From: an uncultured Planctomycetia bacterium
GTDB lineage: Bacteria; Omnitrophota; Gorgyraeia; Tantalellales; Tantalellaceae
DNA: 64,000 bases
Assembly: GCA_964409365.1 (NCBI GenBank)
Contig: CAYPCX010000001.1
Location: forward strand, 312,699 to 376,698
Direction: 5' to 3'
Position numbers and translations under genes: made by a program. Position 1 is the first letter of the stretch, and each line of letters starts with the position of its first letter. Below the pieces are notes generated by a model. That model searched no databases and had not been told where the DNA came from. It saw nothing but the letters and a program-made list of their open reading frames with translations. Below are positions 26,132 to 28,108 of this stretch, in pieces.

Positions 26132-28009
26132 ATGCGAAAAGAAAATATCCTGATCATACTTTTTCTCCTTGCCGCGGCTGTTATCTGTTACCATAACGTC
26201 CTTGACGCCGATTTCGTGTGGGACGACGAATACCTGGTCGAGCTCAACCCTTCCGTAAGGGCGCCGTTATTGTCGTTATATCCGTTCAGGCAGGACATAA
26301 TAAGCTCGAACTTCATATACACGATATATTACCGCCCCATACAGATACTCAGTTATGCCGTCGATTACCGTCTGTGGGGCTTGAACCCCCTGGCGTTCCA
26401 TCTCTCGAACATCATGATCCATTTCCTTAACGGGCTGCTTGTTTTTATCCTTACCGGCAAACTGAGCGGGAAAAGGTCTGTTGCGCTCCTGGCGGCGCTT
26501 CTTTTCGTCATCCATCCCATGCACGTGGGGTCCGTTGCTTATATTTCGGGCCGCGCGGACCTTTTGTTCTTCCTGTTCGGTTTTCTTTTTATGCTTCTAT
26601 ATATCTTGTTCCGTGAAGGACGCGGCACTGTCTATCTCGCGGGAAGCGTTCTTTTTCTGATACTGTCGCTTCTCAGCAAAGAAGCGGCTTTGATCTTTCC
26701 TTTTCTCCTGGTTTTCATGGAAGCGATGCTGCTTGGGAAAAGGTTCGGCTTTCGCCCCTTGTATCATGTGCCGAACTTCCTTGTCGCCGGGGGGTACGCC
26801 GTCCTGCACCGGTCTATTTTCGGGGCGCGGTATCCGCTCCTGATGGGACAGGGAAGGATAGCCGAGGGATTATCGAGATATTTCATAATGGTAAGGGATT
26901 TTCTCGCGATAAGTGTTTTTCCCAGCGGTCTTCACATGAGAAGGGGATCGGGCGGATCCGGGACATGGCTGGTCTTCGCCCTCGTGATAGCGATAGCCGC
27001 GGCGCTCTTTTTTAATCTGAAGAAGAGTCGGCGGATGCTGGTGTTCTCGACCGGGTTCTTCCTCATAGGGCTTATCCCTTTTGTCTTCGTCGCGGGCTAT
27101 TTCGGGGTATTAGCGGAACACTGGATGTATCTGCCCAGTTACGGCGTTTTCCTTTTTATGTCCGTGGCCGCGATGGGATTTTTCGGGAAAAAAGAACTGG
27201 TACGGAAGGCGGCGGTAGCGGCCCTTGTCTTTGTGGCTGTTGTCTTCTATTCCTTGAACACCATGGTCCAGAGCATCTACTGGCATGACAATATATCATT
27301 GAGCGACAGAGTGCTTTCCTATTCGGACAAGGATATGCCGGCCATGCATTTCAAGGCCGTATCCCTTGTAAGAAAGGGCGAAAAAGCGAGCTCGGCAAAA
27401 GTTGTGGAAGAATACATCGAGACATATCCCCGCGACGCGAGAGCTTTGTACATAAAAGGCCGGATAGACCTTGCCGCCGACCGGCCGGACGCGGCCGAAC
27501 GGGCGTTCAAAAAAGCCGTGGAGATAGCCCCCGGGTACGATAACGGTTATTTCGGCCTGGCCTTGACGGAGTTCGTCAAAGAACGGCAGCGGGAAGGCAT
27601 AGATCTTCTGGAAAGGACGGTTTCGATCAATCCAAAGCATTCCGAAGCGCTGTTCCTTCTGGGGACCGCCTATTCCAGGATGGGAGAACATGAAAAGGCG
27701 CTGGGGGCGGCGGAAAGGGCTGTAGAAATAAGTCCTTATGATTACAACGTTCTTGTCAATCTGGGCACGGTATATGCCCGCAAGGGCGACCTGCAGAACG
27801 CTGCCAGGACCTATCTAAAAGCGGCCACGATGTATCCTGAAAGACCCGAGGCGCAATATGATCTTGCCTATACTTTTTACGTGGGGGGCCAGACCGGCGA
27901 GGCCGAGGTATGGCTGCGGAAAGCGCTGATGACAGATCCCTACTATAAACCCGCGATCAAGCTCATCCAGAAGATCAGAGAAGAAAAAACTGCGAAAAGC
28001 GGAACTTAA
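26132..28009 (+). CDS. Polytopic membrane protein with TMTC/PMT-like GT-C domain (DUF1736-type) and C-terminal TPR repeats
   Basis: FVWDDEYLVELN motif in first loop, about 11 TM helices, then about 6 TPR repeats (AERAFKKAVEIAPGY...); start at MRKENIL. Confidence 0.6.
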   Translation: MRKENILIILFLLAAAVICYHNVLDADFVWDDEYLVELNPSVRAPLLSLYPFRQDIISSNFIYTIYYRPIQILSYAVDYRLWGLNPLAFHLSNIMIHFLNGLLVFILTGKLSGKRSVALLAALLFVIHPMHVGSVAYISGRADLLFFLFGFLFMLLYILFREGRGTVYLAGSVLFLILSLLSKEAALIFPFLLVFMEAMLLGKRFGFRPLYHVPNFLVAGGYAVLHRSIFGARYPLLMGQGRIAEGLSRYFIMVRDFLAISVFPSGLHMRRGSGGSGTWLVFALVIAIAAALFFNLKKSRRMLVFSTGFFLIGLIPFVFVAGYFGVLAEHWMYLPSYGVFLFMSVAAMGFFGKKELVRKAAVAALVFVAVVFYSLNTMVQSIYWHDNISLSDRVLSYSDKDMPAMHFKAVSLVRKGEKASSAKVVEEYIETYPRDARALYIKGRIDLAADRPDAAERAFKKAVEIAPGYDNGYFGLALTEFVKERQREGIDLLERTVSINPKHSEALFLLGTAYSRMGEHEKALGAAERAVEISPYDYNVLVNLGTVYARKGDLQNAARTYLKAATMYPERPEAQYDLAYTFYVGGQTGEAEVWLRKALMTDPYYKPAIKLIQKIREEKTAKSGT

Positions 28010-28108
28010 GGCACGGGTAAGACCGTCCCGTGCTCAAACAGTTTTTGCCTCGCATGGTTTCGACAGCAAAAAAACTGCGCGCGGGACAGTCTCACCCGTC
28101 CCTTAACC
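28005..28108. repeat. ~95-nt long-hairpin intergenic element, copy B
   Basis: ...GTCCCGTGCTCAAACAGTTTTTGC-ctcgcatggtttcgaCAGCAAAAAAACTGCGCGCGGGAC... Confidence 0.85.

Follow-up and report, generated by a model that had tools for sequence, protein, structure and literature searches.

What is the element of about 95 nt that recurs, each time as a long hairpin, between functionally unrelated genes of an uncultured Candidatus Omnitrophota bacterium? The window analyzed here (64,000 nt of contig CAYPCX010000001.1, assembly GCA_964409365.1) carries five full copies of this hairpin element, for which an initial annotation had proposed three identities, namely a repeat resembling REPs or MITEs (miniature inverted-repeat transposable elements), a family of structured 3'-untranslated region (3'-UTR) or terminator modules, or a small RNA. 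Much work has been done on small interspersed hairpin repeats of Proteobacteria, Neisseria, and pneumococci; the Omnitrophota are ultra-small bacteria that form an uncultured phylum and may depend on hosts. We think it probable that the element is a dispersed hairpin repeat of the same kind as the REP, ERIC, and Correia elements, specific to its lineage, directional, and non-coding, and that it multiplied by insertion into the intergenic spacers of one Candidatus Omnitrophota lineage. Among the three initial proposals the REP/MITE-like one is best supported, by the absence of the element in relatives, by truncated and tandem copies, by assembly breaks, and by the unrelated neighbors of the copies.

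The window comes from an ENA metagenome contig of 338 kb, and the same species is also present in two JGI and two Logan assemblies. The homologues of its PdxA are named Candidatus Omnitrophota or Omnitrophica, the closest non-identical ones showing 66-68% identity. About 150 kb of non-redundant sequence was examined in all (~81 kb of the source genome).

Copies and anatomy of the hairpin

A covariance model (R1), built from 12 copies of the element, confirmed the five window copies within a few bases of the positions first given, all on the plus strand, with scores of 81-102 bits (E 1e-17 to 5e-23); the reverse strand of these five sites scored 27-39 bits. When all 15 full copies from both sources (the window species and the metagenome Ga0180432, see below) are taken together, the scores are 78-102 bits vs. 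19-39 bits on the reverse strand of those sites, and the element is directional because its reverse strand scores far lower than its sense strand. An unbiased repeat search independently recovered the family (as repeat sets D9, D11, and D15), and the 13-mer GTATCCCGTGCTC, with up to two mismatches allowed, was found seven times in the window vs. 1.5 times expected, a count reached in no shuffle. The window contains the five full copies (5 copies per ~81 kb in the source genome), a truncated 5' arm, and a short inverted 3'-arm-like fragment, which are given below together with one variant hairpin.

7384 to 7411, minus strand: inverted 3'-arm-like fragment (GTCCCGCGCGCAGTT) immediately 5' of copy 1 (nhmmer, model positions 64-91, E 0.0035)
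7441 to 7537, plus strand: copy 1, subfamily 1, in the spacer between lgt and a pseudouridine synthase gene (Pfam neighbors; covariance model, 102.2 bits)
28010 to 28105, plus strand: copy 2, subfamily 1, with a basal stem that is divergent yet compensated (covariance model, 91.9 bits)
40359 to 40389, plus strand: truncated copy, 5' arm and upstream flank kept (nhmmer, model positions 3-33, E 8e-4)
53735 to 53830, plus strand: copy 3, subfamily 1, in the pdxA-ksgA spacer (covariance model, 91.4 bits)
56587 to 56683, plus strand: variant hairpin in the gatA-gatB spacer, one locus (fold -58.5 kcal/mol, z -6.4)
62083 to 62178, plus strand: copy 4, subfamily 2, in the mgtC-bactofilin/HTH spacer (covariance model, 92.6 bits)
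63192 to 63287, plus strand: copy 5, subfamily 2 (covariance model, 81.3 bits)

The element sequences are as first described, and each window copy folds into one long hairpin (minimum free energy -27 to -50 kcal/mol, z -3.4 to -7.8). The two subfamilies that had been distinguished are real, copies 1-3 having ...CTGCGCGCGGGA and copies 4-5 ...CTCGCACGTGACA, and a third shows a U-A to C-G swap in the inner helix. The flanks of copy 1 (-46.8 kcal/mol, z -7.8) lengthen its palindrome to ~7416-7556, while the outermost pairs of copy 2 (28005-28108; fold -50 kcal/mol, z -7.7) take in the stop codon (TAA) of the TPR gene upstream; pilM lies 117 nt on. Copy 5 is placed 25 nt past the stop of an HTH_17 gene and 26 nt ahead of the start of a PDZ gene. 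The weakly matching fragment at 7384-7411 could instead be a diverged 5' arm, the element being palindromic. The 5'-arm fragment reported near 40358-40390 was recovered by nhmmer as the truncated copy, the remainder of which is replaced by a heptamer-repeat palindrome. This truncated copy sits between the second and third of three tandem paralogous genes (37868-41654; ~390-420 aa, 62-71% DNA identity), which have no Pfam domain except a sub-threshold bactofilin match. The hairpin at 56587-56683 combines the basal arms of the family (GGAAAGGAGCTCCCGT... / ...GGGAGCTCCTTTCC) with an unrelated apex; it had no covariance-model match at E<=1 and is thus not a member by the model, and it is possibly a relative of the family. 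Its 5' arm reads like a Shine-Dalgarno sequence, and its 3' arm like the 16S anti-Shine-Dalgarno sequence.

Within reachable data, the family is known from one Omnitrophota species and the organism(s) of Ga0180432 only. A scan of JGI metagenomes gave five loci, all from Ga0180432, in which the covariance model and nhmmer found 10 full and three partial copies, with cores almost identical to the window cores and basal stems that differ yet are complementary. Representative genomes of GTDB, among which the source species is evidently not represented, gave eight matches, all of them chance matches without the 3' arm, and viral contigs searched with two patterns gave none. Rfam, a check already suggested in the initial annotation along with the covariance model, returned no match at gathering threshold over the whole window, only generic miRNA-precursor hairpins far below threshold. 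Tandem pairs spaced 30-43 nt exist, as do partial copies. The Ga0180432 copies are without a T-tract, and in five of them a canonical terminator (GC hairpin plus T-run) closes the upstream gene and is followed by the element. In one Ga0180432 copy (L016:80-175) the two arms match poorly and the 3' half has exactly the sequence of L014:80-175; this copy is probably a chimera made in assembly at a repeat. On the same two contigs (L016 14364-13200, minus strand, and L014) the hairpin was seen as part of a larger mosaic, in which a conserved ~70-nt module (...ACGCTCCGGYGGTTGYCTG...GAAAAGTAGAGC) comes after it; a fragment made of the 3' arm plus this module also stands alone.

The unit of ~95 nt reaches up to ~150 nt with weakly conserved palindromic flanks, which in most copies lengthen the palindrome by 10-25 nt per side and differ in sequence from copy to copy. 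The stem is ~29-35 bp long, each arm being ~38 nt. The ~13 pairs of the basal stem, in which purines prevail in the 5' arm and pyrimidines in the 3' arm, drift in sequence with their pairing maintained, and the upper stem is nearly invariant (CCCGUGC with GCGCGGG, the conserved U.G included). An asymmetric internal loop sets UCRRA opposite C (5 nt vs. 1 nt), and above it stands a U5GC/GCA7 helix with two unpaired A residues; this internal loop and bulge are kept in all copies of both sources. The terminal loop of 15-16 nt is variable apart from a GC close to where it begins and a CAACA that closes it on the 3' side. The core consensus reads CCGUGCUC-RR-ACAGUUUUUGC, a ~16-nt loop ending in CAACA, and then GCAAAAAAACUGCGC(G)CGG. 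Of the 97 columns of the alignment, the invariant ones are concentrated in two blocks (19-39 and 53-75), and the basal stem is variable.

Further readings of the hairpin were tried and dropped. A second stem inside the terminal loop depended on one apparent U-A to C-G swap that was inconsistent among copies, and a REP-like mini-hairpin in the 5' arm (GAGCA-TCCCG-TGCTC) is present in only three or four copies. A small open reading frame (ORF) was also considered, the sense frame having seemed open with KxRVSRAQTVF-like peptides; the element is non-coding because the loop, which measures 15 nt in some copies and 16 nt in others, and an indel of 1 nt break the frame between copies. No convincing sigma-70 or sigma-54 promoter was seen by eye in the core, and a scan called none inside copies 3-5; an integration host factor (IHF) site (WATCAANNNNTTR) had no match in the loop on inspection. 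The proposal of an independent small RNA is unsupported, no conserved promoter-like sequence having been seen by eye.

Structural statistics were drawn from the alignment of the 15 distinct full copies from the two sources, and since this alignment had been fitted to the covariance model, its pairing values carry that caveat. Paired cells amounted to 92.8% (vs. 83.1% with shuffled and 39-56% with slid partners), double changes were seen in 15/29 pairs (vs. ~8 shuffled and 3-10 slid), and the covariation score was 0.322 (vs. 0.147 shuffled and 0.07-0.12 slid). In the conserved core, the sense strand shows 16 G.U wobbles vs. two A.C mismatches (L016:80-175 being excluded from these and all wobble counts). 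The conserved asymmetry and this core wobble argue that the sense strand would be the one read as a hairpin, which may be RNA or single-stranded DNA; the antisense strand is at least as stable when folded in four of the five window copies. The initial annotation had reckoned with plain repeat DNA, to be recognized by copies confined to the window or lying in coding regions in both orientations without covariation, and what we found is copies beyond the window, none of them coding, in a single orientation, and with covariation.

Gene setting and insertion

All 15 full copies and the four fragments are intergenic, none being within a coding region, and 15/15 copies point the same way as both flanking genes. 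The window copies lie 0-94 nt past one gene and 26-117 nt ahead of the next. The statement that the element is always just downstream of a gene is true as such, but it is uninformative because all window genes are on the plus strand, so that each copy is just as well upstream of the next gene. This co-orientation is unusually strict, since every credible gene in the window and in ~17 kb of its flanks is on one strand (+). The GC skew is positive throughout the window (+0.08 to +0.17).

The window encodes proC, ileS, dksA, lspA, lgt, a pseudouridine synthase gene, and aroA; mreBCD, PBP2, and rodA; a type IV pilus cluster (two pilB, pilC, and pilMNOQ); RNase E/G, L21, argS, mfd, two surA, pdxA, ksgA, gatCAB, ctpB, and tsaD; and mgtC, bactofilin/HTH, and other genes. 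The neighbors of the copies are functionally unrelated to one another (lgt, rluD-like, TPR, pilM, pdxA, ksgA, and mgtC, and further a LacI-family gene, a TonB receptor gene, and a radical SAM gene).

For comparison we used seven related Omnitrophota loci from five to seven genomes, the PdxA of which shows 63-70% identity to that of the window. Several of them keep the window gene order from mfd to the PDZ gene, and none of the seven gave a match to the model, even at E<=10. The pdxA-ksgA spacer is 168 nt in the source genome vs. 48 nt in two relatives (L020 and L021), and the two genes overlap in a third (L022); the mgtC-bactofilin spacer is 206 nt vs. 16 nt in L020. Because the syntenic spacers of the relatives are without the element and measure 0-48 nt, it would be in this lineage that the element was inserted. 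Judging from these sequence comparisons, the element appears to have been gained by insertion into spacers, those of ancestral operons included.

TTAA-containing hexamers flank the copy on a Ga0180432 contig (L012; GTTAAG on both sides) and copy 2 (CTTAAG / CTTAAC). Two Logan contigs end inside copy 4. A related Omnitrophota metagenome-assembled genome (MAG; GCA_034723315.1, L017) has a 100-N scaffold gap (11009-11108) exactly in its pdxA-ksgA spacer. Such contig ends and such a gap are typical of assembly breaks at repeats, and the gap may hide a repeat in that genome too.

Explanations of the element

How such a repeat would spread, and what it would do as RNA, we infer as follows. The conserved asymmetric core would be the recognition site of a trans-acting protein encoded elsewhere in the genome, and this protein would copy or maintain the element. 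The copies are probably co-transcribed into operon mRNAs, because they lie within operons, are co-oriented with the genes, and are placed 26-117 nt ahead of the next start codon. In an mRNA, the helix of ~30-35 bp could then form a barrier to 3'-exonucleases or an RNase III-type processing site, and would not be a dedicated terminator. This putative effect on mRNA decay or processing is modelled on the Correia elements. The element is not simply the terminator of its upstream gene, because five Ga0180432 copies follow a canonical terminator.

Several observations weigh against a dispersed repeat of this kind. No transposase, integrase, Y1_Tnp/RAYT, or parent element was found in the ~150 kb of non-redundant sequence. 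No target-site duplication is unambiguous: the TTAA noted above is itself palindromic, the other copies show none, and the boundaries are uncertain. Nor was a presence/absence polymorphism found within the species, all assemblies of which share the same copies. MITEs and REPINs conserve their termini, whereas here it is the apex that is conserved, which resembles a protein-binding RNA hairpin, and the strict co-orientation with genes equally fits a selected RNA function. The covariation counts are inflated because copies of one genome share descent; there are only two sources, within which copies are non-independent. Intrastrand template switching in DNA palindromes could, in addition, mimic compensatory change. 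Finally, A.C mismatches (10) exceed G.U wobbles (5) in the outer stem, which thus bears no RNA signature.

The alternative that survives best is a host-selected cis-acting RNA module, that is, an intercistronic or 3'-UTR hairpin that would offer its conserved internal loop and A-bulged U/A helix to a dedicated RNA-binding protein or nuclease for the processing, stabilization, attenuation, or localization of operon mRNAs, the basal stem of which need only pair. An invariant apical core on a covarying basal stem, as in structured RNAs, speaks for it, as do the asymmetric loop and bulge conserved across all copies of the two sources, the co-orientation of all 15 copies with genes, and the core wobble that favors the sense strand (16 vs. 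2); other spacers of the genome form long hairpins unrelated to this one, which suggests a general demand for intercistronic hairpins. However, the element is absent from the equivalent spacers of all related genomes checked, is not associated with any gene class, has truncated and tandem copies, and belongs to no Rfam family. Five Ga0180432 copies are behind a canonical terminator and would be poorly transcribed, and in four of the five window copies the antisense fold is no less stable than the sense fold. We regard such a module as possible, with the balance against it. The 3'-UTR or terminator module of the initial annotation is weakened, by the five copies behind a canonical terminator and by other copies inside ancestral operons.

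More tentatively, we suggest that the asymmetric apex may be the recognition module of an undescribed Omnitrophota protein-RNA or protein-single-stranded DNA system, perhaps tied to the palindrome-filled spacers of this genome. One variant of this suggestion would be a new class of hairpin-guided mobile element, the enzyme of which recognizes the apex instead of the termini, and another would be a genome-wide processing signal for operon mRNAs.

It is improbable, in our judgment, that the element acts at the DNA level, either as a cruciform or single-stranded DNA hairpin bound by some host protein (for instance a nucleoid protein, a gyrase, or a recombinase) or as a polar signal that runs with replication. 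This would be comparable to the BIMEs, which bind IHF and gyrase. The window copies are all on the G-rich, presumed leading strand (as the GC skew given above indicates), so that both replication and transcription correlate with their orientation; the outer stem, moreover, is without an RNA-specific wobble bias. On the other hand, a duplex binding site would not require 30 compensated base pairs, the core wobble pattern favors one folded strand, and no binding protein or motif was identified, the IHF-like consensus being unmatched on inspection.

There is still less to be said for a family of intrinsic (rho-independent) transcription terminators, which we consider very unlikely, even though a stable hairpin lies 0-94 nt past stop codons and four of the five window copies end in T4-T7. 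These T residues are part of the stem, being paired with the 5' A-run, and the Ga0180432 copies, which have no T-tract, follow a separate GC hairpin and T-run in five cases. Copies in ancestral operons are placed 26-53 nt ahead of the start codon that follows, a distance too short to house a promoter. A simple terminator scan called none of the copies, although its 3-8 nt loop limit excludes them by design. Two further readings can practically be dismissed, a site for site-specific recombination (integron attC-like or other) and a small gene that encodes a protein: the imperfect palindrome 3' of ORFs and the frame open in many copies are outweighed by core housekeeping neighbors, by frame-shifting indels between copies, and by the absence from these loci of a cassette array, an integrase, and RYYYAAC/GTTRRRY boxes.

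Apart from the hairpin family, this genome has other palindromic spacers, which were surveyed in the window by folding against simple shuffles. Tandem 7-nt repeats fill many spacers (6396-6485, 11872-12204, 14424-14626, 15757-15973, 17726-17766, 33376-33405, 42172-42248, 45912-45956, and 60300-60356), with purine-rich units (ACAGAGG, CAGAAGA) on the 5' side and their complements (ACTGGTT, ACTTGTT) on the 3' side, so that a whole spacer is an imperfect palindrome of ~200 nt. These arrays are reminiscent of the STRR heptamers of cyanobacteria; the related loci that we checked (L017, L020, and L015) lack them. A second repeat family has a unique core (GGACGTAGATGCCnGGAGGATGTTAGAT) within heptamer arrays (6396-6468, 11915-11987, and 15783-15855); this core is also on a Ga0180432 contig (L012 7620-7823) and is thus common to the same two sources. 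Long palindromes of 8-nt (AGTGTCAC/TGACACTT) and 7-nt (GGTGTAA/CCTGAAA) tandem units occupy 8485-8575 and 32880-33020. In the murD-ftsW spacer, which is ~7.5 kb upstream of the window, one extra 92-nt unit, a small hairpin plus heptamers, distinguishes two assemblies of this species (L023 2280-2450 and L024 2190-2450). This length difference was considered as a filled/empty site and dropped, because it is a copy-number polymorphism of the heptamer-based repeat. The spacers hint that a process particular to this lineage, or a selective demand, lies behind the intercistronic hairpins, and they may prove more interesting than the hairpin element itself.

The hairpin family supplies a covariance-model handle on a structured element, marks one lineage, and accounts for assembly breaks in the MAGs of that lineage. 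Its invariant asymmetric apex, covarying base, and strict orientation make it a natural test of selfish DNA vs. a domesticated RNA signal. If the element is simply REP-like, it is a routine addition to the catalogue.

Comparison with known element families

The present element shares with the REP/BIME/REPIN repeats of Proteobacteria, which are mobilized by RAYT transposases, that it is extragenic, multi-copy, hairpin-forming, and probably often co-transcribed, and that it occurs as singletons, in tandem clusters, and in mosaics with other short modules. REPs are imperfect palindromes of 20-40 nt with GTAG or CGTC at one end (PMC3733652), whereas neither tetramer is conserved at either boundary of the 15 aligned copies and their flanks, and the arms here are ~38 nt. 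A REPIN forms a long hairpin of ~100 nt with conserved terminal REPs and a central spacer that varies (PMC3337134, PMC3116915); in contrast, our element has a conserved apex and a variable base. It is, furthermore, found in Omnitrophota, and there is no RAYT among the genes of the ~81 kb of source genome or of the fetched loci. As in MITEs, there are terminal inverted repeats, the arms pairing over at least 29 bp, but its termini are not the conserved part, and no autonomous parent insertion sequence with the same ends was found among the loci examined.

What the element has in common with the Correia elements of Neisseria (CREE/NEMIS) is its intergenic position, a length of ~100-150 nt, long inverted repeats, and a core that is conserved. 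CREE are transcribed into mRNAs, in which their paired arms form hairpins that RNase III binds or cuts (PMC2649163). They also have terminal inverted repeats, a TA target duplication, an IHF site, promoter-generating ends, and both orientations, whereas the present copies are all in one orientation and those CREE features are undemonstrated in them. ERIC/IRU is an imperfect palindrome of ~127 nt in transcribed intergenic regions, with orientation-dependent effects on mRNA (reviewed in PMC2229807). Our element is likewise an imperfect palindrome in intergenic regions, but it has no sequence similarity to ERIC, which is conserved over its full length and occurs in both orientations.

Like intrinsic terminators, the element puts a stable hairpin soon past stop codons, with a T-run in some copies; unlike them, it has a stem three to four times longer, a T-run that is paired, and a loop of ~16 nt, and several of its copies come after a real terminator. 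It differs from integron attC sites in that its copies are 1-25 kb apart among housekeeping genes, with no integrase and no RYYYAAC...GTTRRRY boxes in the loci examined.

Among the papers searched, we found none that describes small interspersed hairpin repeats, or REP, MITE, or REPIN elements, in Omnitrophota. Of the REP/MITE label, the dispersed repeat has held up, while the specific definition of a REP failed and the MITE part is unproven; by its sequence the element is neither a classical REP nor a REPIN, and MITE status is not demonstrable from the present loci. We would class it as a new family of a known kind, the small interspersed intergenic hairpin repeats.

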